A stretch of 64,000 nucleotides of DNA, from NCBI GenBank assembly GCA_040217195.1, contig JAVJNR010000006.1, positions 96,001-160,000 on the forward strand, in the 5' to 3' direction. Below are positions 18,708 through 33,556 of this stretch, piece after piece. Each line of letters starts with the position of its first letter. The first letter of the stretch is position 1. Source of the DNA: Leptospiraceae bacterium. Its GTDB lineage: Bacteria; Spirochaetota; Leptospiria; Leptospirales; Leptonemataceae. Under the pieces are notes generated by a model. The model searched no databases. It saw only the letters and a program-made list of their open reading frames with translations, and was not told the DNA's origin. The position numbers and the translations under genes were made by a program.

Positions 18708-20042
18708 TCAATTCGATACACCACCTTTTCGTTCTTCTGCCATTGACTGAACGCTCTGTGCGAACTCTGGATAGCGCTGTAAAATTTCTTCGAATGTCTT
18801 ACGATCCAGGGTATACACATCGCAGTAATCGGTTGCTTTAACCGAAGCATTTCTGGGCGCATGATGGAGCAAAGCCACTTCTCCAAAGAACTGACCATCA
18901 GATAAAGTGGCGATGGAGTTCCTGTTGCGGTCCAGAATCTCGACTGTGCCTTTGCTGATCATATACATCTCTGTTCCAGGGTCTCCGTACTGGAAAATCA
19001 TATCGCCCGGAGTATATACCTGGGGTGTAAGGCTTAGAACAATTTCCCTTACAAGGCTGGCCGGAGCGCCCTTAAGGATTGGCATTTTTTCAAGAATATC
19101 TTGGTTTAGAGAAAGGGCTACTTCCATCTGTAAAGATCTGGGCAGATCTTTTAGAAATGAGAATTCATCGTATCCCAGGCGACTCTCCCAGAGATAGTTA
19201 TAATAGTTGCGGATTCTTTCCTGAAGTCTTGAGGGCAGATTTCTATATCTGAGAAAAGCATTCACCGTATCCATTTTCTGCTGAAAATGGGCTCGCGCCA
19301 CGTCTATGTTTGCCAGTAAATGAGCGACGTTACCAATAATGTATCCGTACATTCCGGCGCCTACAATCATGATTACGATTGCATAGACGGTTTGATGATT
19401 GTTGGACGGTACCACATCTCCGTATCCAACGGTGGTAAGAGTTGTAAATGCCCAGTAAATACCACGAACGTACCTGGTTAAAGAATCCGGAGCATCCGGA
19501 ATTCCTCCCATGGCCACCCAGCCGCATCCTACCCAGTGGCCGATCAAAGTAACCCAGAAACCAAAGAAGATTAGACGCATTATTGCCGGATTCAACAGGT
19601 CCCGATGCCCCAGTCGATGTAGCAATTGAGCCAGTCGAACAAGTCGAAGCAATCGGATGAGTCGAAGCATTCTCAAGGCTCGCAGTAGAGTAGGCGAAAT
19701 GAGTCTTGCAAGATTTGCTTCAGGTTCTCCAAGACTGTGAATCAGGATAAGATCAAATGGTACGGCGGCGAGAAAATCTACGATAAACCAACTAGAGAGA
19801 TACTTCCTTGCTACAATCTTTGGATCACTGATCAGTCTACCTTCCAGGACTATGCAAGTTCGAAAGTTTATGAAAATATCCGATGCGAAAACAGAGATTA
19901 CTATTAGGTCCAGAATAAGAATCCAGCCCTGGGCCGGATATCCAATGACCAGTCGTAAAGGAACCTCTATGGAAGCATAGGTCGTAACCAGGATAAGAAG
20001 GATTTCCCAGGTTTGCCTGAATGAATGCGAGGGATGGAGCAT
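18708..20042 (-). CDS. Cyclic nucleotide-gated potassium channel (SthK/LliK-like)
   Basis: S4 RALRMLRLIRLLRLVRL, filter TTVGYGD, C-linker, CNBD FFGEVALL...RNASV. Confidence 0.93.
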   Translation of the reverse strand: MLHPSHSFRQTWEILLILVTTYASIEVPLRLVIGYPAQGWILILDLIVISVFASDIFINFRTCIVLEGRLISDPKIVARKYLSSWFIVDFLAAVPFDLILIHSLGEPEANLARLISPTLLRALRMLRLIRLLRLVRLAQLLHRLGHRDLLNPAIMRLIFFGFWVTLIGHWVGCGWVAMGGIPDAPDSLTRYVRGIYWAFTTLTTVGYGDVVPSNNHQTVYAIVIMIVGAGMYGYIIGNVAHLLANIDVARAHFQQKMDTVNAFLRYRNLPSRLQERIRNYYNYLWESRLGYDEFSFLKDLPRSLQMEVALSLNQDILEKMPILKGAPASLVREIVLSLTPQVYTPGDMIFQYGDPGTEMYMISKGTVEILDRNRNSIATLSDGQFFGEVALLHHAPRNASVKATDYCDVYTLDRKTFEEILQRYPEFAQSVQSMAEERKGGVSN

Positions 20043-20060
20043 GGATCGACAGGCCTGGAA

Positions 20061-21233
20061 TTAGATCAGCTCATCCAGAGATACCTTTTTACTGGAATCC
20101 ATCGGTCGACCATGATCCGAACCTCCGATTTCCATTTCCCGGTTCTTCTTTTCGTAATGTGCTACTATCCTTTCCTTTAAAGGTAGCCATCTTCGATTGT
20201 AGATACTGGCCAGTCGGGAAATCTCATCCTGTGGTCGGTCCGTGAATTCAGGAATGGCCAGATTATAGTTCCATTGCCTGAGACCTCGGTCCATCATATA
20301 GACCGGTTCGGCCACGCTTTGAACAAACAATCGGCCATACAGTAGAACATATCCAAAAAGCAAGAACATGATGATTGCCAACAAACAAAGAATGAGTAGT
20401 GCCAGGTTTGCATCGGCGCGAAAGTAGGAAAGCCTGGCAGTGTACCCATCTGGAAGCTCCAGGCCAATCTGTGGACTCCATTCAGGAATGCTGTCTTTCG
20501 TCTCGTATAGAGTCTGCCCGTCTTGATCTTTCAGAAAAACGATGGCCGGAAATGCGGATGCGAACAGAGTGGGATTGGGCTTCTCGTAAGCCTGGCGATT
20601 TCCATCGTTCAGATATTCGGCCAGTGAATTTTGTACTTCGAGCTTATACACTGCATGGCCCGGTACCGGAGACACGGGCAGTAGTTGTAATAGAAACACT
20701 GAGAAAATCAGAGTCGTAACGGTTATGGTTGCTACAGTGGCTACATGATGATTTGTCATCTGCGATTCTGTATATTGCACCGGACCAAGTATGCGAAGCA
20801 TACGAATCAGTCGCAGGGCCCGGGTAACTCGTACCGCTTTTGCGGTCTTGAGTAGAACCATATACTGAGGCAGATGCTCTACCTGTCCGTCCGCGCTAAA
20901 GAAAATCAGGTAGATGGCCGGTCCGGATACCAGGGCAGCCAGAGGTACCGAGGATACGAAATCAATCCATCCTCTCTGGCGGGTAAAGTATAGCAGGAAT
21001 CGGCCTTCCTTGAGAGAAACGGTGGACCTTGCCAGAAACTCCAATGAGAAGATTAGATCAAAAGCAAAGGCTCCCAGAATCAGGTCTCGATGTGTACTGG
21101 TATCCCATGCCAGTAAAATGGCCAGTTCTTCCACACACAGGTGGCAAATGGCAAGAAAGATCATAATCAATATTATGATCTCAAAACTATGGGGAAAATG
21201 ATCCTCTGGGTACTTCCTTTTATGGGCAGCCAT
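20061..21233 (-). CDS. Membrane protein with voltage-sensor (S1-S4) domain and HAMP-like domain, no pore filter
   Basis: FDLIFSLEF (S2), WIDFVSSVP (S3), KTAKAVRVTRALRLIRMLR (S4); two further TM helices flank a soluble loop; EPVYMM...DEISRLASIYN is HAMP-like. Confidence 0.75.
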   Translation of the reverse strand: MAAHKRKYPEDHFPHSFEIIILIMIFLAICHLCVEELAILLAWDTSTHRDLILGAFAFDLIFSLEFLARSTVSLKEGRFLLYFTRQRGWIDFVSSVPLAALVSGPAIYLIFFSADGQVEHLPQYMVLLKTAKAVRVTRALRLIRMLRILGPVQYTESQMTNHHVATVATITVTTLIFSVFLLQLLPVSPVPGHAVYKLEVQNSLAEYLNDGNRQAYEKPNPTLFASAFPAIVFLKDQDGQTLYETKDSIPEWSPQIGLELPDGYTARLSYFRADANLALLILCLLAIIMFLLFGYVLLYGRLFVQSVAEPVYMMDRGLRQWNYNLAIPEFTDRPQDEISRLASIYNRRWLPLKERIVAHYEKKNREMEIGGSDHGRPMDSSKKVSLDELI

Positions 21234-21426: not shown

Positions 21427-22206
21427 TCAGATATAGCCTTTGAACCAGTAGGCCAGGGTTCCAATATACTCTTTTAACCCGATCCAGGTTTTCTGGATTC
21501 CGTGAGCGGACGGAAACAATGCCTCCGGTCCTGCAAAAAAAGTGGATGAGCGATAATCCGTAGGCACAGGAACCACTTCCAGGTCTGTTAATTCATTAAA
21601 TACGGCAACGGATCTGGGCATATGAAATGCCGAGGTAACCAGAAAGACTCGATTCCATCCCAGCTCCTCTGCTATCTGAGCGCTGTAGATAGCATTTTCG
21701 GCTGTGTTTCTGGACTGGCTTTCTGCGATAATCTGCTCTTCCCGGGCCATGTCTTGCTCCAGAAGCCAGGATTTCAGGAGCGTGGATTCAGCAGGGCCTC
21801 CTTGAAAAATCAATCCACTTCCACCAGAAAGAATCATGATGGGGGCTTTTCCAGCTCTCAGGATGGCCAGTCCTGCAAATAGTCGATTGGCCCCATCGGT
21901 GAATTCAGGTACATCCCCCCGCTGAGCTACTGGATCCATCATTCCGCCAAGAACAATAATCCCATCTGCATTCTGATGCTCAGTAACAGTGATGCTGTAC
22001 TGATCCTCAAGAGACCCCAGAATCCAGTCTGCACATACATCTGTGGACAGAAAACCAAAGAGCAGGAATCCAGCCAGAAATAGGCGTCTGGTCTTTTTTC
22101 GCTCAGTACCTTTGGTGGCCCGCCATCCCAGGATCAATAGCAGAAAGTACGCCGCCGGATACAGACTAAACAGAAGAGTGAAAAGCTTGGATAGATAGAA
22201 GAACAT
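21427..22206 (-). CDS. YdcF/ElyC (DUF218) family protein
   Basis: IIVLGG, ILSGG, ESQSRNTAENA, LVTSAFHMPRS, KEYIG. Confidence 0.92.
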   Translation of the reverse strand: MFFYLSKLFTLLFSLYPAAYFLLLILGWRATKGTERKKTRRLFLAGFLLFGFLSTDVCADWILGSLEDQYSITVTEHQNADGIIVLGGMMDPVAQRGDVPEFTDGANRLFAGLAILRAGKAPIMILSGGSGLIFQGGPAESTLLKSWLLEQDMAREEQIIAESQSRNTAENAIYSAQIAEELGWNRVFLVTSAFHMPRSVAVFNELTDLEVVPVPTDYRSSTFFAGPEALFPSAHGIQKTWIGLKEYIGTLAYWFKGYI

Positions 22207-22559: not shown

Positions 22560-24671
22560 ATGACCGTTAAGATTACAGACCTGGCAGCACACTTTGTAGA
22601 AGAGATTACCTCTGCCATGAGTCGGATTGAGGACCCGGAAGAAATTCTAGATGGGTTGCTCTCCGACTGTATTGAGGCCACCCAGGCCGACTCCGGAAGC
22701 ATCATGCTGCTTGATTCCTCCGGTGAGTATCTGGAAGCCCGAGTTGTGCGTGGACTGAACCTGGTTGGCGGTAAGCTGAGATTAAAGCTCGGAGAGGGGG
22801 TCACCGGCTGGGTAGCCCGGGAAGGGAAGTATCGTCTGGTGAGTAATGCCAGCGAAGAGCAGGATTACATTCGATTAAAAGAAGATCTGCAATCTGAGCT
22901 GGCTGTTCCAATGATGGCCCGTGGTCAACTGATGGGAGTCCTCTCTGTGGATGCCAGGCGGCCAGGAGCGTTCACCCAGGAAGATGCAGATTTCCTGAGA
23001 ATCATGTCCAATCTGGCGGCTCAAATCTTTGTTCGCCTGGAAGACAACCGACTACTGAAGATACGGGATCGATTTCATCAAGTAATGATGGAGATTTCCC
23101 GCGTTGTATCTCATTCCCTGAAACTAAAGGAAGTATTCCGTGAAATCATGCAGATCACGGAGAAAGCCTTTCGACTGAATCGAAGTACGTTATTCCTGTA
23201 CAATTCAGAGGAAGGTTTGCTCAAGATCGCCGCTGCAAGTGGATTGGACGAGCGAGAGACATTATCCATTACCTACAGTTCAGGCGAAGGGATTACCGGT
23301 GGAGTGTTCCAGAGCAAGAAAGCTATCTTTATTCCCAGCGTTAAGAATGAAACCGGCTTTTTGAATCGAATGAAGACCGTTCCAGAAAGCGGCGATATGG
23401 GCTATTTTTGCTGTCCCATTTTCTCTGGAACCGAAGTGGTTGGAGTGTTTTCCACTTTCACGCATCCACAAACCGGTGTGGATCCAGACTCGGTACTTGA
23501 GTTTCTGGAAATTCTGGGCTCAATCATCTCCCAGGCAATTACGATTCAAAGACTTGTTCAAGAAGAGACCAGAGTCATTACCCATGAAAACCTGAAACTA
23601 AAGCAGGAGCTTTCCAGTCGCTATCAATTTGGAAGCTTAATAGGCCGTTCTTCATCCATGCTTCGACTGTTCGAAAAGGTAAGGATTATCGCGGATTCCA
23701 GAGCTTCGGTTCTACTGACAGGCGAATCCGGAACCGGTAAGGAATTGATTGCAAGTGCTATTCATTACAATAGTCCTCGGCGTGAGCGACCATTCATTAA
23801 GATCAATTGCGCAGCCATTCCTGAGAATCTTCTGGAAAGCGAACTATTCGGTCACCGTAAAGGGGCATTTACTGGAGCGGTAGGCGATAAGAAAGGTAAA
23901 TTCGAAATCGCCGATGGAGGAACCATCTTCCTGGATGAAATTGGGGAGATGGATCTAAATCTACAGTCCAAGCTACTGCGCGTACTTCAGGAAAGGGAAA
24001 TTGAGCCTGTGGGCGGTCGCACCCGCCAGGTAGACATTCGAGTCATTGCTGCAACCAATGCCGAACTGGAAGAGCTAATTGCACAAAAGCTGTTTAGGCC
24101 TGATCTCTATTATCGTCTGAATGTAATTAATCTCAGAATTCCTGCACTTCGTGATCGCCGAGAGGATACAGTTCTTCTGGTACATCACTTTATTGATAAG
24201 TACAACAAAGAAAATGAGAAGAAGATTACCAGTATTTCGCATGATGCCATGCGAATGCTGGAGAATCATGACTGGCCGGGAAATGTTCGGGAATTGGAGA
24301 ATGTTATTGAGCGTGCTGTGGTAATGGCTCAAAATACAATTCTTGATGTTGAGGATTTTACAGATATTACTTTGCCATTTTCTGCCGAGAAGACTGCAGC
24401 GACGGAACCAGAAGTTGTAAGTAATGAACCAGAGGAAATACAGGAAAGTGGACCGGAGACCACTTCAGCGGTTGCGGCTCTGATTTCTGAGGAAGAGCTG
24501 GATAATATGGAAGGCAAGGTTTATGAAACCGTAATTTCAGAAGTGGAGCGCCGGCTAATCGTCATGGCCTTAAAGCGGTTTCGCTATACTAAGACCAGGG
24601 CGGCCCGATTCCTTGGAATCAACCGAAACACCCTGGATAAAAAAATTAAAGAACTGGAAATAGACTATTAA
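22560..24671 (+). CDS. sigma54-dependent activator (bEBP) with two GAF domains, NifA/FhlA-like
   Basis: [37 protein letters not shown], Fis-type HTH. Confidence 0.95.
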
Positions 24672-24683
24672 ACAGGTCCTGGA

Positions 24684-27600
24684 TCATGGGCGAATCCAGC
24701 GCGAAGTGACAAGCCGGTACCCATACACAGAATTACTGTAGCTCAGGTCTCGGATCATCAATGCATATGCGTGCACATATCGTTGATGCAATCCGCTCTC
24801 CGGCAATGAACGATCGTAAAAATGTTTCACAAAGAAGGCATGGGCCGTGCCCGCAGGCCTTACAATGCTCAGCAATCCAGGCGCATCTGTGTTTTCTCCC
24901 AGTCTGATAAGGAAATCCCTGAGCTGAGCACGATTCAGGTCCACCAGGTAAGTATCGGAAAGGAAAAATGGAAGGCCCCGATTGTTATAGATGGGTTGGT
25001 GCGGATTGCCTGAAAAATGATGGTACAGAGAAGGGTTGCCCACGGAAGTATTTTCCAGGGCACTTAGTTCCATATCGCCCATCCTCCCAATTAGATTCGC
25101 ACTTTGTCCGGGATAGACACCCGGGCGACCGGATACTGACACACGAAAGTTCCCTTTCAGCGCCAGATCACCACGAAACGGTTCTGCGCCCGCAATCGTT
25201 GCTGGGTCCAGAACCTGATATAACTGATCTCCGGTACGAGGAATAATGGGAGCCAGGGCATGGGCCGTGGGGAACCAGAAATAATGAGGAACATCGGTGC
25301 GTCCTGGAAGAATAGAGCGATAAAAGTCTGATAGTGTGGTTGCCAGTTGATCATGGGGCTGGTTATTGCGAATCCGTTGCTTGAATTCTTCCAGGTTCGC
25401 TCGCATTTCTCGTGCGCTGGCACCCAGGTCTTTTTGTTCCAGGCCTCGGGATGTAAGGATAATCGAATAGAACTTATCACCCGCATCTACAAGTACTGTA
25501 AGCGATTGATTCTCTGGAATGGTGCGAATTATCATTCCAGCAATATCTAACATGGGCGGCAGTTTGTCTCCGGCGCCCAGTATCGAATCCTGATAGAACT
25601 CCAGATTCGCCAGGGTCTTCCAGTTGTTGTCTTGTATAGCCCTTCGCTTGAGCAGAAAAAGCGCTATACTTCGTTCCTGTTGCAGGTTCGGAATGCCGGC
25701 CCCTTTTTCCAGTTCCCGGACTATTTTATCATAGTCCCGTCTATCAGGAGCGCCGGGCAGTCCAATGAGCATGTCTGCCATTTTTCGCACTGGCGTTACT
25801 GTCATAAATTCGCCCAGCAATGGATCTGAGATGGGCTTATCGTAGAGTCTGTACCATACAGCCAATCTTCCTCTTCGCACATTATCGCTTTCCAGGGAGC
25901 CTTCCCGGTATTCCAGGTGCTTCGCATAGAAGCGATATCCAGTGTCTGGATCCATCTTATTCAAATAGGACTCGGAAGCAACAAGTGCAAACCAGGAAGC
26001 CCGAGCTCTTGAATAGGCTGCCTCCGCATTGATAAGATCCATTAGCATTCCCGCTATCTGCAGTCCCGGATCTATATCCACGGACTGAATGAGCAAATGA
26101 AACATCAAAGCTCGATCAACGCTGGAAAGATACAGGCAGCTGGTTTCTCCGTCATCTGACAGGCCTACCAGGTCTGTTATCTGTCTGCCGTCGGGCAATA
26201 CCTTCTGAATGGCCGTGAATGCATTGGCCTCGGAAAGATCCTCTTCTTTTACAGGGATGCAGCGAAGCTGCTCAAAGGATATGGAATTTCCTGTGCGACT
26301 ATTCTTCCACTGATTCAATAATTGCTTTCTATGTTCTCCCTGCTCCTCGGGTACAGTGGGAGGGAGGTTCGCTACCAGGTCATCAAAGAACTTCCAGCGA
26401 CCGGCCAGGGATTCTGCCAGCAGAAAGGCTGTATCTGTGCGAACTGATCCCGGAATGCGAAAATCCGATTTCTGAAGCAACGCTGCCTGGATCTGTGCCT
26501 CACCGGCCAGTTCACGGCTCTGCGAATCAAAGTCATTTTGTAGTAATTGATTGGCCCGGTCCGTGGCACCATGATGAATCAGGTGTCTGGCTGCTCCTTT
26601 TCTGTCTTCCGGTCCCTGCAAATAGCTTTCCAGCCCATCCGGCGAAAGCCTGGCTTCTTTTAGCGCTGTGGCGGGGGAAGGGGAGCTTTCCAGGATGGCC
26701 AACGAAAGGTAATTTCTCAGTCGCCCCACCATGTCGCCGGCCAATTCCGGATACTTCTCTGAAAACTCTCTGGATAGTTCATTTCCGGCCTGGATCTGGC
26801 CGGCTTCATAGAGTCCACGAATACGCTCCGAGTATAGGAGCAGGGCATCTGCCGGGTCCTGGCCCAGGTTCAGAGACTCGGGAAAGAAGAATAGGCCATC
26901 TTGAGAGTTCAGTCTGGCCAGAGAACGATTTAATATGCTGGCTGCTTCCAGGCTTTCCGGTCCATTCAGCAATTGTCGCAAGGATAGAGCCCTGGATGCC
27001 AGTAATGCTGCTTTCTCATTCTCTCTTTCGCTCAACGCGGCTCGGGCCTGTTGCTCCGAAGCGCTGGCATCCTGCAGAATGTAGGACTCCATGGCGCTGG
27101 CATCAAAACCGGATACTCCGAAAATAGGGGCTCCAGACTTTGCATAGCTATCCTTCCCGGCCATGGTCAGGATCTGTTGATACTGATCATCATCGGCCAC
27201 GGCTACCGTGGCTCCTCCCGATGCTCGAAACACCTCATAGGCATTCCGAATAGACTGGAACCTCTGAACCGGATCTTCTTCATCTGGATGCAAGAATAGT
27301 ATGGAGGCCTGACCCGGCTCACGGATGGCCTGCCGGAGGTTATAGCCTGGATCTTTGCGCCCTGCGAAGAGCTCGAAAGCAGGAGTGGACTCATGCACCA
27401 GATGATTGCTTCGATTCACGGGTGCACTACCTGCATTCCAAATATTTCGGCGCCCCTGAGCACCCTTTAGATCCCGGGGACTGCCAATAAATCCAAGGGC
27501 GTCTTCGAGATCCATAATCGTGCTGGTAAATACAGGCTCCGGCAGATCGCTTCTGAGGTCTGGAATTCGAACATGTAGATCCCATACGAAGGATCTGTGA

Positions 27601-30600
27601 TCCGGTATTACGATCAGTTCACTGGCCTTTTCTGGGAGGCATTGCTTTAAGAACTCATCTATTTCCTGATCCTTAAATGGGCGAAAGGTAACCTGTCGAT
27701 CGAATACCAGACATCCGCCGCCAGGCTGATTTACAAAAAACTGAATTAAGACCTTATTAGCAGAAGGGGCGGGAATGGTTTCATCCAGTATCAGGAATGG
27801 TTTTAATAGCGGTCGCGCCTGCACCAGGCTTTGCTGGACGTAGGACAGATCATTTCGCAATTCCTGATTATATCTGGCAAGGTCTTCAAAATTCTTGTGC
27901 TGCAATCGCAGAACGGATTCCTGTCTGGAGCTACGGGAAAGTGTTGAAAGTATATTCAACATCACTCGATGTTGCTCGTCTTCAATGCCATTGGCTAACT
28001 GCAATGGATATCGAAGAAACTGATTTTGCAAATTGCTCTGACGCTTTAATTCAAGTACCTGAAGTGCTCGGCGCGGCGCTCCCTCTTTTATATAGAAACG
28101 CGCCAGACTGTCGAAATAGTCCGGAAGTCTACTCGAAACACGATGACGTAAATCCGGAAACTGCAGCAAGATGCTCAGAGATTTTTCATAGTTTCGGCGA
28201 GCTTCTGCCGGTTCCTTTCTGGCGGCGAAAGCATCGCCCAGGGTACGGTAGGTGGCCCAGTACTCTCGCAATGCATTGTACTCATAGGTTTCATCTGCCA
28301 GGTCACGGAGCTCGTTGATAGCCTCGGATGTCTTGTTCAGCAATAGCTGCGTTCTGGCCAGATTCAGTCTGGCACGCATGGCCTGAAATCCAGGTACCTG
28401 CCCTCGAGCGGCCAGGGCTTTTAATGCATCATTAAATAATTGTTCTGCCTTACTGGCCGATTCTGTGGAGTCGGATGTGTTATTGGCACTGGCCTGTTGC
28501 AATGCAATGTAATAGTAGGTCTGGCCTTCCAGAACCAGAAAGTCCACCACTCGCTGATTCACTCGTTCTTCTACAATGGGATCATCCCGTCGTTCGTCGT
28601 AGCTGAAATCTGGATCTTCTGTAACTTTTTCTTCTATATAGTCCTCTTTGATTTCTTCCCTGTATCGCTCCTGCTGAGTGCGCAATAGAGCCACAGAATC
28701 CTGCAGTCTATCAATTGTGGCATAAGGATGGCCTGCTTCGGAGGCCATGAATAGTACAACGTATGAGTTCTTGAAGTTGGTGAAGAAACTATCCAGAAAA
28801 TTCCAGTCCAGGGCTTTCTCTGCTGCCTCCTGGAACACTTCATGAGCCTGGTCAAACTTCTGTAGATTGACCAGGTTGAGTGCCTTCTGATTCTCAGAGG
28901 AAAGAACACCCTGCTTGCCCAGAATTACATCCCCGTCCTCGGATTCGAATACATCCTTTCGCTTCTCAATCAAGGCCAGGGCCCGATCCAGGTCTCCCAG
29001 CAAAACGGCATTTTCTAGCTGGATTCCCAGGGAAAGCTCATACTGTCGCAGGCTGGAAAAGCCATAGGGTGTACGTCCTTCGCCTATAACGGAGAAATCC
29101 TCGCCGTAACCCAGAATACAGTCCAGAGCACGACCACCGATCGTCTGAGGCTGGTACCGACTGTCTTCTCGATCCAGCCCTCGATTCAAGCTAACCTTCT
29201 CCGCCAGTTCAGCTGAGCTGTCTGAAGCGGAATACATTCCGGCGGATTGATAACTCATGGCCATGAAGTTCAGTAATCCGGACCGGGCCACGCCGTCCGG
29301 TACCTGGGGCTTCTGGCGATACAGAATATATTCTGCCTCCCGGTAAGAAGAGATGGCTTCTCTATATTGGCCGGCTTCGCTCAGGGCCAGTCCTCGCAGA
29401 GAGGAAATTAGTGCCAGGCGATAACGACTCTGCAATAGTTTTTGCTCTGTTTCCTTTAACAGTCGGTCCAGGTAGGCCGGATAATCCTGTCCGGATGTGC
29501 GAAACTTCAGTTCCGTAAATCGCTGGAAAGTGGGACGATACTCATTGACTTCGAAGATCTGGCGGGCCTTCTGCAAATCTTCAGCGGCGCGAATTACCTG
29601 CCCCTCATAATAAGCAGATCGCCCGCGATTGAAGAAATACAGCGCTTCCTGAAGATAGCCTGAAAACAGCCGATGAGAACTCTGGTCCTTTAGTTCTTCA
29701 ACCAGTCTGTAATGCTCGGAAGCCCTTTTAAAGTTCAGCAACTTGAAATGATTGTTGGCCAGGTTCAGATTCAGTAGAGCCTTACTTACCGGATCTGCAT
29801 TTTGACCCAGCCTGGTAAGAGCCTGGTTGTATAGCTCAATGTTTTTTTCATATAACCTGTCCGGAAAATAGGCTACATACAGATCGCGATAATAAGCTCC
29901 GTCCTGATATTCTGCAGGTCTGGCTCCGGTGATTGTTCGAAATGCTTGCTCAATTAGATCAGGCTCAATGAGCAACCGGGAATCCCGGCGTTCATCTACA
30001 TATTGATATAACCAGCCTAGAAGCAGATAGGCATCCACATTGTCCGGCTCTACGTAGAGGATGTACTGCAGCTGATATTCGGCTTCTTTCAGATCTCGAA
30101 GCACCGCTTCCTTCTTTTCTCGTAAAAAGCCATTGCTTAGATCCTGGCCTTCTTTGAGCAGGCCATCGTAGAATTGTTCTCGTTCTACTGACTTCTGGAC
30201 CAGGGCGTATGCGTAACCGTAAAGCAATGAATGATCAAAGAACTGCCTGGCCTCCGGCGATGCGTAGCGATAACCATAGACTACTTCATTGAAGATCCGG
30301 GCTTCAAATGGATCCCCTTCGCTGAGTAGATCTGTCAGGGGCGCTGTAGGATCCAGTTCAATCTTCTGTCTTTCCCAGGAGAGCCTCTTCTTATTTCGCT
30401 CCACAGCAAGATCTACTTTCATTCGATGAAAGAATACAGCTTTCCGTTTGTACAGTGCCGGGAACAGATCTGCCTTCTTTACGAAAAGGAAGAGAATGTT
30501 CATACTGTTTGCGTTGGCATAGCTGGACAAATAAAGCAAATCCGCAGCCACCTGCGCATCCTGGAAGGGCAAATCCACGGTCTTGCCTGAGAAGAAATCC

Positions 30601-32924
30601 TGATTGCTACTACAAAAATTCTGATACTGGCGTAGATAGTCCGGAATGCCCAGGCTGCGTAGAAGAGGCATGGCAGATGAATCCGGGGCGCAAAAATCTC
30701 TTAAGACCTCTCGATCACTGAGCTTCAAAGAAAGTGATTCCCGACTAAGGTCCAGTTCCACTACAGCCAGGCCCACACCAAACCTTCGTTCGCTTCTCTC
30801 TTCCAGGTCTACGTAAATGGATCTGGCTGTGTCACGATAGGTGCGAATAATCTGTTCCGAATCCTCTACAATACCCTGAAACTCCTGGGCTGAAATGTCT
30901 ACTCCTGAATCCGGGGTATAGGAACCACCGTACATTAGCTTTGCGCTATAAGCGGCCGTGCTATTTTGTAGAGACTCTTCGGCGAAAGCGATGGTCTGCC
31001 ATCCGCGAAGGAACAGTCCTGTTTTCTCCGGTACGCCTTCCAATCCTTTCCTGCTGGCTTCAATGGCCTTTTCATACTGACGGTCATTGTGAAGCAGGCG
31101 CCCTCTGGCAATATTCAGTGCTGATTCGATAGATTTCTGGGATTCTGGCAATAGACTGTCTATGGCAGCCAGTCCATTGGCAGGAAGCATTCCTTCAAAT
31201 TCACTAAAAATGGAAGAAAGGATCTTTTCCCTGATAGAGCCTGGCAATTCTTGATCGTTGAGAAGGGTTCTAAATATTTCTGGTATTCGCTTCCTTGTGC
31301 TGAGCGCTAGCTCTCCCTGCAGCGTAGAGGCTTCGTACTTGCGAAAGTAATCCGGATAGTCTCTGTTCAGCTTTTCCAGAGTGAGCAATGCACCCTGTGG
31401 ATTTCCAGAATCCTTCTGCGCCCGGGCTAATTCTTCCAGTAGATACGGGCTGGCGATTTTTCTCTTTTCTTCGCTTAACCGGGAAGGCACTGAATTTAGC
31501 GCATTCTGTAGAATGGCTGCACGGGTGGCGGGGCTACGGGGGACGGAATACAGGTTTCGGTCCAGCTCCACCATGGGATTGTCCTGCAGCGCTTTGGCAA
31601 TCCTTCGGTCCACCGACTGCGCTTCATCCTGGGCACCTGCTTTTTTGAGAGCTGTGCGAAGCTTGAGCAGGGATTTCCCTTCGAATAGAAAGAAATGTGG
31701 AGATTCCGAGTGGTAAAGTCTCACCGCCTCCAGGGCCAGTGCATATCGATCTGGATATTCATCGTAGTCATCGGCCAGGGCATATTGTTGATCCACACGA
31801 GGTTGCCCTGGAATCATACCCGATCGCGGGGTAACGTAAATGTTGACTGTATTGTACAGGTCTGCTGCATACAGTATGGTGCCCTGTTCAAATCCGGAAA
31901 AAGCAAGTGAGTAAATGGGAACGCTGCTTTCAATCAGTCTGAAACGTTCGGGAATGGGGCGATTGCTGATTACGTCTTTTACACTGATCCCCGCCACAGA
32001 TGCTCTGTCTGCCTGGTCCAGAATACCATTTCGATTTGTATCTTCGCGCACCACGCCGTAATAGAGAGTCTGTCCATCTGCAGAAAGGGATGGGCGAAAA
32101 TACAGATAAGGATTTCGCTGCGGGCCGGGCTCCAGGGGTACTCTATGTCGCATACCGGAAGTACGGTCCAGGATTTCAATGTGGGGTATTCCATCGGATG
32201 CGCGAATCAGGTAGGTAATGAATTTTCCATCGGCAGATACACTGGGCTGTAGTGAGTTTTCTTCTGTAATAGGCACCGGAAGTGCTTCGCTTTCCTGCTC
32301 TTCCAATTCCAGAGACCAGATTCTATATACCCCCGGATTGCAGCGATCGCTGACAAAGTAGATGGTATCGCCGTTTGGGGAAAGTACCGGATCCTTTTCT
32401 GCAAAACTACCTTTGCATCCAGGTCCGAGCTTTTCGCCTACACTGTCCAGATACCTGGACAGGTTAATGGATGAAGTCCAGAGGTTTGGTGGATCTTCGC
32501 CGTCCAGGGCCGCTTCTACTATGTATTCCGGCTCCAGGGCAACTATGCGAATATCTCCTCCTGCATCCAGTTCAAAGGATACATATGCCAGAATCGTTCC
32601 ATCTGGAGTAATGTAGGGGTCAGTTTGCTCAGCTGGATGTCTTACTACCGGAACGTTGACTGTGCTGCTAAGGTCGCGCATCCAGATGTCGGATGAGCCG
32701 TCCACATCAGAGGCATAGAAAAGATATCCGTTGGAGGAGGCAGCCGGGTCCGTATTGTTTCCCCGCTGCACAGTGAGCGGAAAGTGCCCCTCTGGATTGT
32801 TTTCCAGAAATTTGCTGATTAATCGATTGTAATCAAAACGTGGGGGCTGTATTGTCCTGACCGATGCACATTGCCCGAGCAGGATCAGTGCAGTTAGTAG
32901 CGTAATACAGCGAAATGGAATCAT
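24684..32924 (-). CDS. Giant (~2750 aa) lipoprotein: TolB/PD40 beta-propeller, TPR array and CHAT-like regions
   Basis: Start at MIPFRC overlaps the upstream TGA (TGATG); LILLGQ-C lipobox; PD40 motifs (DPYITPDG, DPVLSPNG, QPSVSADG, RPSLSADG); many TPR-like helices. Confidence 0.8.
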   Translation of the reverse strand: MIPFRCITLLTALILLGQCASVRTIQPPRFDYNRLISKFLENNPEGHFPLTVQRGNNTDPAASSNGYLFYASDVDGSSDIWMRDLSSTVNVPVVRHPAEQTDPYITPDGTILAYVSFELDAGGDIRIVALEPEYIVEAALDGEDPPNLWTSSINLSRYLDSVGEKLGPGCKGSFAEKDPVLSPNGDTIYFVSDRCNPGVYRIWSLELEEQESEALPVPITEENSLQPSVSADGKFITYLIRASDGIPHIEILDRTSGMRHRVPLEPGPQRNPYLYFRPSLSADGQTLYYGVVREDTNRNGILDQADRASVAGISVKDVISNRPIPERFRLIESSVPIYSLAFSGFEQGTILYAADLYNTVNIYVTPRSGMIPGQPRVDQQYALADDYDEYPDRYALALEAVRLYHSESPHFFLFEGKSLLKLRTALKKAGAQDEAQSVDRRIAKALQDNPMVELDRNLYSVPRSPATRAAILQNALNSVPSRLSEEKRKIASPYLLEELARAQKDSGNPQGALLTLEKLNRDYPDYFRKYEASTLQGELALSTRKRIPEIFRTLLNDQELPGSIREKILSSIFSEFEGMLPANGLAAIDSLLPESQKSIESALNIARGRLLHNDRQYEKAIEASRKGLEGVPEKTGLFLRGWQTIAFAEESLQNSTAAYSAKLMYGGSYTPDSGVDISAQEFQGIVEDSEQIIRTYRDTARSIYVDLEERSERRFGVGLAVVELDLSRESLSLKLSDREVLRDFCAPDSSAMPLLRSLGIPDYLRQYQNFCSSNQDFFSGKTVDLPFQDAQVAADLLYLSSYANANSMNILFLFVKKADLFPALYKRKAVFFHRMKVDLAVERNKKRLSWERQKIELDPTAPLTDLLSEGDPFEARIFNEVVYGYRYASPEARQFFDHSLLYGYAYALVQKSVEREQFYDGLLKEGQDLSNGFLREKKEAVLRDLKEAEYQLQYILYVEPDNVDAYLLLGWLYQYVDERRDSRLLIEPDLIEQAFRTITGARPAEYQDGAYYRDLYVAYFPDRLYEKNIELYNQALTRLGQNADPVSKALLNLNLANNHFKLLNFKRASEHYRLVEELKDQSSHRLFSGYLQEALYFFNRGRSAYYEGQVIRAAEDLQKARQIFEVNEYRPTFQRFTELKFRTSGQDYPAYLDRLLKETEQKLLQSRYRLALISSLRGLALSEAGQYREAISSYREAEYILYRQKPQVPDGVARSGLLNFMAMSYQSAGMYSASDSSAELAEKVSLNRGLDREDSRYQPQTIGGRALDCILGYGEDFSVIGEGRTPYGFSSLRQYELSLGIQLENAVLLGDLDRALALIEKRKDVFESEDGDVILGKQGVLSSENQKALNLVNLQKFDQAHEVFQEAAEKALDWNFLDSFFTNFKNSYVVLFMASEAGHPYATIDRLQDSVALLRTQQERYREEIKEDYIEEKVTEDPDFSYDERRDDPIVEERVNQRVVDFLVLEGQTYYYIALQQASANNTSDSTESASKAEQLFNDALKALAARGQVPGFQAMRARLNLARTQLLLNKTSEAINELRDLADETYEYNALREYWATYRTLGDAFAARKEPAEARRNYEKSLSILLQFPDLRHRVSSRLPDYFDSLARFYIKEGAPRRALQVLELKRQSNLQNQFLRYPLQLANGIEDEQHRVMLNILSTLSRSSRQESVLRLQHKNFEDLARYNQELRNDLSYVQQSLVQARPLLKPFLILDETIPAPSANKVLIQFFVNQPGGGCLVFDRQVTFRPFKDQEIDEFLKQCLPEKASELIVIPDHRSFVWDLHVRIPDLRSDLPEPVFTSTIMDLEDALGFIGSPRDLKGAQGRRNIWNAGSAPVNRSNHLVHESTPAFELFAGRKDPGYNLRQAIREPGQASILFLHPDEEDPVQRFQSIRNAYEVFRASGGATVAVADDDQYQQILTMAGKDSYAKSGAPIFGVSGFDASAMESYILQDASASEQQARAALSERENEKAALLASRALSLRQLLNGPESLEAASILNRSLARLNSQDGLFFFPESLNLGQDPADALLLYSERIRGLYEAGQIQAGNELSREFSEKYPELAGDMVGRLRNYLSLAILESSPSPATALKEARLSPDGLESYLQGPEDRKGAARHLIHHGATDRANQLLQNDFDSQSRELAGEAQIQAALLQKSDFRIPGSVRTDTAFLLAESLAGRWKFFDDLVANLPPTVPEEQGEHRKQLLNQWKNSRTGNSISFEQLRCIPVKEEDLSEANAFTAIQKVLPDGRQITDLVGLSDDGETSCLYLSSVDRALMFHLLIQSVDIDPGLQIAGMLMDLINAEAAYSRARASWFALVASESYLNKMDPDTGYRFYAKHLEYREGSLESDNVRRGRLAVWYRLYDKPISDPLLGEFMTVTPVRKMADMLIGLPGAPDRRDYDKIVRELEKGAGIPNLQQERSIALFLLKRRAIQDNNWKTLANLEFYQDSILGAGDKLPPMLDIAGMIIRTIPENQSLTVLVDAGDKFYSIILTSRGLEQKDLGASAREMRANLEEFKQRIRNNQPHDQLATTLSDFYRSILPGRTDVPHYFWFPTAHALAPIIPRTGDQLYQVLDPATIAGAEPFRGDLALKGNFRVSVSGRPGVYPGQSANLIGRMGDMELSALENTSVGNPSLYHHFSGNPHQPIYNNRGLPFFLSDTYLVDLNRAQLRDFLIRLGENTDAPGLLSIVRPAGTAHAFFVKHFYDRSLPESGLHQRYVHAYALMIRDLSYSNSVYGYRLVTSRWIRP

Positions 32925-33556
32925 CACTTGCGAACCCAGGCTCCTACAGGGTTCCTTATCCATTCACCGCTTCTTGTGCGATAGTAGAATGAACGTAAGA
33001 AAGCTTCTGCCTCACGGGGCTGAATTCGGGAAAGATACGCATAGATGGCCCGTCTGGACTGGTTCGTATGCTGCGCTGCGACAATAGCCTTTTGCAGGTT
33101 TTCTGCTGAAATGGCCTGCCTGTAAGCGATTGGAGTTCGCATAACTCGGCCGTCGTAGGATTCGCCCAGAATACCCATATTTCTATACCGATGCACTATA
33201 TCTGAATAGAATTCCAGAATTCGATATTCATGGCGCACTTCGGAAGAATAGCCCGCAAGCTCCTCTGTGCCCGCCGGAAGGGCTGAGGAAGAGGCCACAA
33301 GCCATCCATCCTGAACTAGCTCTTTTTCTTCACCGATTAGCTGTCGCTCCGCTGCCGTTCTTGCAGGCGTTAGCGTAATCGGTGGTAGATCCACGCTAAC
33401 TACGGTGCATTTTCCCAGCTGGTCGGTGAGGAAATCAGTGGCCGGGGATAATACCCTGGGAGTGGTAGTGGAAGAACAGGACAACAGTCCCAGGATTAGA
33501 CCGATCATCAGAATTGGCCTGGCAAGGCTGGAGATGCGTATTTGAAAATATATCAT
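32924..33556 (-). CDS. DUF1318 (YdbL-like) domain lipoprotein
   Basis: LLS-C lipobox; GILGESYDGRV, NQSRRAIY and GEWIRNPVGAWVRK match YdbL family motifs from recall. Confidence 0.7.
   Translation of the reverse strand: MIYFQIRISSLARPILMIGLILGLLSCSSTTTPRVLSPATDFLTDQLGKCTVVSVDLPPITLTPARTAAERQLIGEEKELVQDGWLVASSSALPAGTEELAGYSSEVRHEYRILEFYSDIVHRYRNMGILGESYDGRVMRTPIAYRQAISAENLQKAIVAAQHTNQSRRAIYAYLSRIQPREAEAFLRSFYYRTRSGEWIRNPVGAWVRK

Follow-up and report, generated by a model that had tools for sequence, protein, structure and literature searches.

The stretch of DNA analyzed here (64,000 nt of the Leptospiraceae bacterium genome, hereafter the window) encodes on its minus strand a 390-aa membrane protein (P0001, 20061..21233) in which an S1-S4 voltage sensor is joined to a HAMP domain and no pore is present. 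This architecture, identified from the open reading frame, Pfam and an AlphaFold model, is real and unusual. Building on what was observed directly, namely the anatomy of the protein, the invariance of its S4 charges and countercharges, the absence of a pore and of an enzyme, and its gene linkages, we lean towards the view that it is a non-conducting, presumably dimeric voltage receptor, which would relay the movement of S4 through its last two membrane helices and HAMP to a separate cytoplasmic partner.

The voltage-sensor domain occupies residues 15-149 (20787..21191; this and the following coordinates of the locus are on the minus strand) and was recognized by Pfam, in the model and by fold matches. 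The sole Pfam match, Ion_trans, covers residues 16-185 only, corresponding to profile positions 3-151 of 241 (E 2.4e-12), and the AlphaFold model (monomer, pLDDT 82.7) places four sensor helices at residues 15-149. S2 carries F62 and E65, as well as D59 and R69, S3 the motif W89-x-D91, and S4 (20793..20849) seven basic residues at every third position (K129, K132, R135, R138, R141, R144 and R147). The model was computed from an alignment of 117 of 124 relatives, seven being left out as near-duplicates, fragmentary or over-long. Identity among the aligned sequences is only 25-40%, yet the S4 charges (7/7 in 117/117) and the countercharge positions are invariant, as are F58, D59, F62, E65, R69, W89 and D91. 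The best VIA matches of residues 15-149 were sensors of Cav, Nav and Ci-VSP (Z 11.8-12.8, rmsd 2.9-5.4 A, 114-131 residues), and Z ranged from 10.7 to 12.8 over the Cav, Nav, Ci-VSP and SLC9C1 sensors overall; Z alone is not decisive, since helical bundles are being compared, and the sequence hallmarks agree with the sensor fold. Also, the gene is under purifying selection when compared with four copies of the same clade (pN 0.10-0.18 against pS 0.72-0.78, the latter near saturation).

Behind the sensor, the model shows a helix at residues 158-184, an alpha/beta domain at about 190-270, a long helix at 271-319, a loop and a helix at 337-367. Together with the alignment, it places the fifth membrane helix at residues 164-184 (20682..20744), behind a conserved S4 linker, and the model puts the sixth at residues 279-298 (20340..20399). 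Between them, where a channel has its pore helix and filter, the model contains a small soluble alpha/beta domain on the outside (residues 187-272, 20418..20675). No selectivity-filter motif was found after residue 150 in the 228 family proteins of at least 330 aa: T-x-G-[YF]-G gave ten matches, all before residue 150, and the four later matches of G-[YF]-G were not in a filter context. The hallmarks of Hv1, an acid in mid-S1 and an S4 tryptophan (RxWRxxR/K) according to a 2023 review (PMC10377628), were absent from the family, with 0/117 sequences having Asp or Glu at S1 positions 22-32 and 0/117 having the tryptophan. Neither a fused phosphatase nor any other enzyme was detected in the protein, and no NCBIfam family matched it. 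Searched as a single query against the sequences of solved structures it gave no match, and the family profile retrieved only weak matches to the Kv1.2 sensor (E 0.009). By the features tested, the protein is not a channel, not an Hv1 and not a voltage-sensing phosphatase.

In the model, helix 6 continues into the first HAMP helix, followed by a connector and the second HAMP helix. The HAMP domain and the helix behind it span residues 300-367 (20133..20336), including P310, G317, D336, N346, L350 and K353. The assignment rests on a profile-profile comparison with 13 HAMP segments of the host genome (probability 90%, E 1.6e-6; reversed control 0.7%), Pfam HAMP being weak in the family (3 of 117 members, best E 0.027, below the cut-off). 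There is also a match between the C-terminal half and a membrane-sensor/HAMP protein encoded in the host genome (E 3.6e-8), and the best Foldseek match is a WalK model (E 8e-3). The chain ends with a short acidic-hydrophobic motif (residues 384-390, 20064..20084), a loose pattern of which was matched in 59 of the 74 relatives linked to a partner gene. Thus, the anatomy given in a preliminary description of this DNA was borne out: the S1-S4 hallmarks were all found, the proposed soluble segment of ~90 aa lacking GYG corresponds to the alpha/beta domain, and the HAMP-like motif after the last membrane helix, with no catalytic output domain, agrees with the profile match and with Ion_trans as the only Pfam match. 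The model itself has the sensor fold (Z ~12), HAMP helices and no conventional pore. The reading of the protein as a receptor, which the same description had put forward, is consistent with the predicted fold, the conservation and the family anatomy.

The outside domain is possibly Cache-like, as, besides the WalK match, the modelled fold aligns with the KinD and CqsR sensors over ~50 columns (rmsd ~3 A, with a non-significant E of 0.5). It evolves faster than any other part of the protein: its dN is 0.32-0.44, while the sensor has 0.05-0.12 and HAMP 0.07-0.15. It is missing from short relatives of 282-298 aa (L089, L090 and L091), which keep HAMP and the partner gene; the S4 ladder is kept in L089 and L090 and reduced in L091. 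The conserved core of the family is made of the sensor, the linker, the helical hairpin, HAMP and the tail. A search of 7991 long candidates, which is a weak test, showed no form fused to an enzyme. Among the best 150 of 368 representatives the longest has 509 aa, and nine long members that were inspected had acidic tails or larger inserts on the outer side.

The host genome also encodes a distant second protein with this build (362 aa, L081:6920-8008, equivalent to G000:C8:196919-198007) near parAB, with a weakly charged S4. It matches the sensor profile with a probability of 96.9% (E 2e-10, 315 columns), or 74% for the C-terminal half alone. It was recovered from 25 of the 41 other host-family (Leptonemataceae) genomes and from 0 of 79 genomes of the sister family, and it lies ~17-25 kb from the main sensor gene in seven host-family genomes.

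The sensor gene ends 18 nt (20043..20060) before a gene for a 444-aa cyclic-nucleotide-gated (CNG) K+ channel of the LliK/SthK type (P0002, 18708..20042), as noted in the preliminary description. This protein is an ordinary bacterial CNG channel and a full member of its class, with S1-S6, its own sensor with six S4 arginines, a complete pore with TVGYGD at residues 204-209 (19416-19433) and a cNMP-binding domain (18771-19022). Its best solved relatives are 5v4s, which we take to be LliK (E 6e-102), and SthK (E 3e-96); the likeness to these channels belongs to the 444-aa protein and not to the 390-aa protein. The two genes are spaced in frame here, an arrangement that is not kept in loci L001 or L002. 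An apparent sensor-channel fusion in another genome (G319) proved to consist of two genes in the same frame, with a stop between them. Downstream, the pair is bounded by a convergent STAS gene. Upstream, 193 nt from the sensor gene, lies a DUF218/ElyC-like gene (21427..22206), which is the neighbour in the host genus only and occupies the usual place of the soluble partner gene. A promoter and terminator scan returned 3 and 5 sites, with 5.5 and 3.8 expected by chance, and none of them fell in the 18-nt gap.

The sensor family comprises 368 clusters at 50% identity (profile search, E up to 0.001) and 267 loci in species genomes, and it spans Spirochaetota. Among named relatives, the nearest come from bacteria labelled Leptonemataceae, Leptospiraceae or Spirochaetaceae. 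It was found in 62 of 301 sampled genomes of the phylum, a lower bound because that search missed Borrelia copies found later; in the same sample, it was found in none of 53 genomes of the other family of the order. Neighbouring genes were counted in 80 loci, the best of the 267. In 75/80, the gene directly upstream of the sensor encodes a soluble protein of ~315 aa, the two genes mostly overlapping or lying within 15 nt of each other, and the five loci lacking it are the host genome's own clade. In the 62 carrier genomes, counts from coordinates put this partner gene next to the sensor in 46 and at another place in 1; in 15 it was not found. It was adjacent in all 18 host-family genomes that possess it and was found in 0/7 genomes of the host genus (the host genome being 93.7% complete). 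As it was found neither there nor in 14 other carriers of the phylum sample, the partner is not obligatory.

By comparison, the CNG gene lies downstream of the sensor in 12/80 loci, 11 of them directly. In the host family it follows directly in 13 of 24 sensor-carrying genomes and after one intervening gene in another; the remaining ten either have it at another place, gave no match to it, or have a contig too short to show it. A calcium/sodium antiporter gene stands downstream on the same strand, after the sensor or the channel gene, in 7/80 loci (L010, L013-L017 and L020), and a gene for an unannotated protein of ~500 aa follows in 11 loci. In a quick unrooted tree of 90 rows, a single clade of 23 rows (support 99) takes in all those with a linked channel, and the channel linkage may therefore go back to one event; a channel or an antiporter follows in 16 of 22 loci of this clade. 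The host genus branches within it, on a long stem (1.57), and in the host genome's own clade nothing of the family arrangement but the channel has been kept next to the sensor. The synteny with a CNG channel, which the preliminary description suggested checking, is real in one clade and is not family-wide, and its reading of the pair as an electrical-signalling module is much weaker than the receptor reading, with the channel in 12/80 loci against 75/80 for the soluble partner. It looks as if partner and sensor formed the family arrangement, ion-transport genes were added in one family and the partner was then lost in the host genus, an order of events drawn from the unrooted quick tree. A separate partner-less clade (also on a long stem, 1.5), made of paralogues (L092-L096 and L102), has no partner gene nearby and keeps the S4 ladder, L092-L096 being also devoid of the acidic tail. 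Positions 139, 152, 309, 384 and 388 are altered in both partner-less groups when five long-branch rows are left out; these changes are few and mostly conservative, and they may be taken as a lead only.

The partner (P0126) has a confident model (pLDDT 95.3). Of its 48,161 VIA matches, the seven top-ranked ones all belong to HD-GYP or cyclic-dinucleotide HD domains, at Z 6.8-8.2 and rmsd 4.2-5.5 A, values within the range that unrelated helical proteins can reach; DvhD comes first (Z 8.2, rmsd 5.0 A, 161 residues). The best Foldseek E was 0.49, and the partner profile, set against 28 HD-GYP domains, gave no significant match (probability 0.4%). HD and GYP motifs were looked for, and no conserved histidine was found, the highest column reaching 42%. 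No Pfam family is shared by the 79 members, and ESM Atlas, Pfam, NCBIfam and PDB sequences gave nothing usable. The modelled fold suggests that the partner is possibly a catalytically dead HD-GYP-like binder, which is a lead and not a membership.

Degenerate versions of the partner-sensor pair were detected in other spirochetes. Borrelia genomes encode overlapping partner and sensor genes of 287 and 348 aa (L083:5706-7606 and L084:5534-7434), convergent on cheA-cheW-cheX-cheY and behind a phosphoglycolate phosphatase gene. By size, overlap and gene order, these fit BB0674 (1047 nt) and BB0675 (864 nt), which overlap by 7 nt beside the phosphoglycolate phosphatase gene BB0676 (PMC3485029, supplement). 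Both published genes tolerate transposons in culture, at three and four sites, and one BB0675 transposon clone could be recovered from none of 15 tissue sites in mice. This result, from one clone, is a hint and gives no phenotype for the 390-aa protein. Neither gene name was matched in the main text of the open-access literature. In the Brachyspira-type pair (L085:5514-7294 and L086:5482-7256) both genes are kept and the S4 charges are gone; more generally, these charges are fewer or absent in Borrelia, Brachyspira and some other pairs. Since the Borrelia and Brachyspira pairs keep both genes despite a degenerate S4, part of the function appears to survive without an intact sensor.

Voltage sensors outside channels have been described in eukaryotes (Ci-VSP/TPTE, Hv1, TMEM266 and SLC9C1), and the 390-aa protein shares with them the S1-S4 fold, the S4 ladder and the countercharges (Z 11.8-12.0 with Ci-VSP and 10.7-11.9 with SLC9C1). 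It differs from them in being bacterial, in lacking a phosphatase, an exchanger or the Hv1 signature, and in leading from S4 into a receptor-type hairpin and HAMP. The 2023 review states that every known voltage-sensing domain of prokaryotes is accompanied by a pore (PMC10377628); the family described here is a counter-example, on the strength of its sequence and predicted fold. Two other systems offer partial parallels. The Cache_heme-HAMP (CHH) receptor of Pseudomonas azotoformans, which has no output domain, binds an operon-encoded kinase through HAMP and shares the outside domain, the membrane helices, the enzyme-less terminal HAMP and the adjacent partner gene; its input is NO on the heme domain and its partner a Ser/Thr kinase (10.64898/2026.05.25.727664). 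In contrast, the spirochete protein has a voltage sensor fused in front, a dispensable outside domain and a partner of no known family; a conserved adjacent partner gene of the CHH type is found in 75/80 loci and not in the host genus. In DvhD, a dCache domain is followed by a metal-free c-di-GMP switch, and both DvhD and LapD relay signals across the membrane, linking an outside domain to a cyclic-dinucleotide domain that is catalytically dead (PMC13090378), an arrangement which the spirochete pair, judged from its models, may share. However, DvhD is one polypeptide with no voltage sensor, while the spirochete system consists of two genes with no sequence similarity to DvhD. Within the open-access literature, which set the scope of the search, we found no description of the sensor family and no dedicated bacterial protein reading voltage by an S4-type sensor outside a channel.

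We hypothesize that a change of membrane potential would move S4, that the conserved S4 linker would then pull on helices 5 and 6, and that this would change the shape of the HAMP dimer and of the helix and acidic tail behind it, a change that the partner would read. In most spirochetes, the likely partner would be the upstream soluble protein of ~315 aa, and voltage would be tied to cyclic-dinucleotide signalling if that protein is a dead HD-GYP-like domain. In the host genus, the adjacent CNG channel would be the first candidate, whether it gives rise to the voltage change or binds to the sensor. The weakened S4 of the Borrelia and Brachyspira proteins and of the second host-genome family speaks against voltage as the input and a cytoplasmic output, and so does the missing partner in the host genus. 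A wider picture, in which spirochetes own a dedicated voltage receptor acting from S4 via HAMP on a dead HD-GYP-like protein with a cyclic-dinucleotide link, the host family has built an electrical-signalling operon with a K+ channel and a Ca2+ antiporter, and the degenerate BB0674/BB0675 pair matters for Borrelia in mice, is put forward as a speculation that we would sooner doubt than believe. Bacteria change their membrane potential, and the sensor family makes bacterial voltage sensing directly testable.

Other ways of working were weighed against this voltage receptor. The signal could run inside-out, as in LapD and DvhD, with the soluble partner sensing a cyclic dinucleotide and signalling via HAMP to the outside domain while S1-S4 only tunes or anchors the assembly. 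The seven best fold matches of the partner, headed by the metal-free switch DvhD, would fit, and so would the partner's lack of a conserved histidine, the persistence of pairs with a degenerate S4, and the occurrence of ComFB genes nearby in 24/80 loci and PilZ genes in 12/80. However, the fold match is weak, the ComFB genes are on the opposite strand in those loci and the host genome has no partner. Moreover, the outside domain, which would be the output, is less conserved than any other part and short relatives have lost it, whereas S4 is invariant in the core family. We consider an inside-out relay unlikely, and favour voltage as input with a cytoplasmic output because the outside domain evolves fastest and is missing in the short forms. 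Somewhat less probable still is an auxiliary subunit that binds and tunes the neighbouring CNG channel. The 18-nt gap at the host locus points that way, as do the channel directly downstream in 13/24 host-family carriers (with one gene between in another), the fact that sensor and channel stayed together in the host genus while other neighbours changed, and the presence of an antiporter in 7/80 loci or of either gene in 16/22 loci of the clade. Against it, the linkage is limited to 12/80 loci of one clade, possibly from one event, the channel already has its own six-arginine sensor and complete pore, and three host-family genomes have the channel and no match to the sensor protein.

About as little probability is given to an S1-S4 domain that responds to a cue other than voltage (anionic lipid, membrane tension or pH) or serves as a fixed scaffold for the HAMP dimer. 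Degenerate S4 helices in Borrelia, Brachyspira and the second same-build family would be expected of such a domain, and CNG-type channels retain charged S4 helices with little voltage dependence; the seven charges and all countercharge positions are nevertheless invariant at 25-40% identity. Conduction of protons or cations by the sensor itself, in the manner of Hv1, seems very improbable. A pore-less S1-S4 with a likely dimerising coiled coil, and the polar Q/H31 and T32 in S1, would be compatible with it, but the S1 acid (22-32) and the S4 tryptophan are absent from 117/117 sequences, which makes Hv1-type proton conduction unlikely, and the unbroken charge ladder leaves no gating-pore gap.

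The host genome also encodes two ordinary, pore-containing voltage-gated channels (C1:218807-219760 and C1:655071-655919), one with a TLEDW-type filter and one with TVGYGD. Elsewhere in the window, a sigma-54 activator with two GAF domains (22560-24671, plus strand) is divergent from the DUF218 gene, and it is followed by a 2759-aa open reading frame (24684-32963, minus strand) with a lipoprotein-like start and a repeat-rich body.
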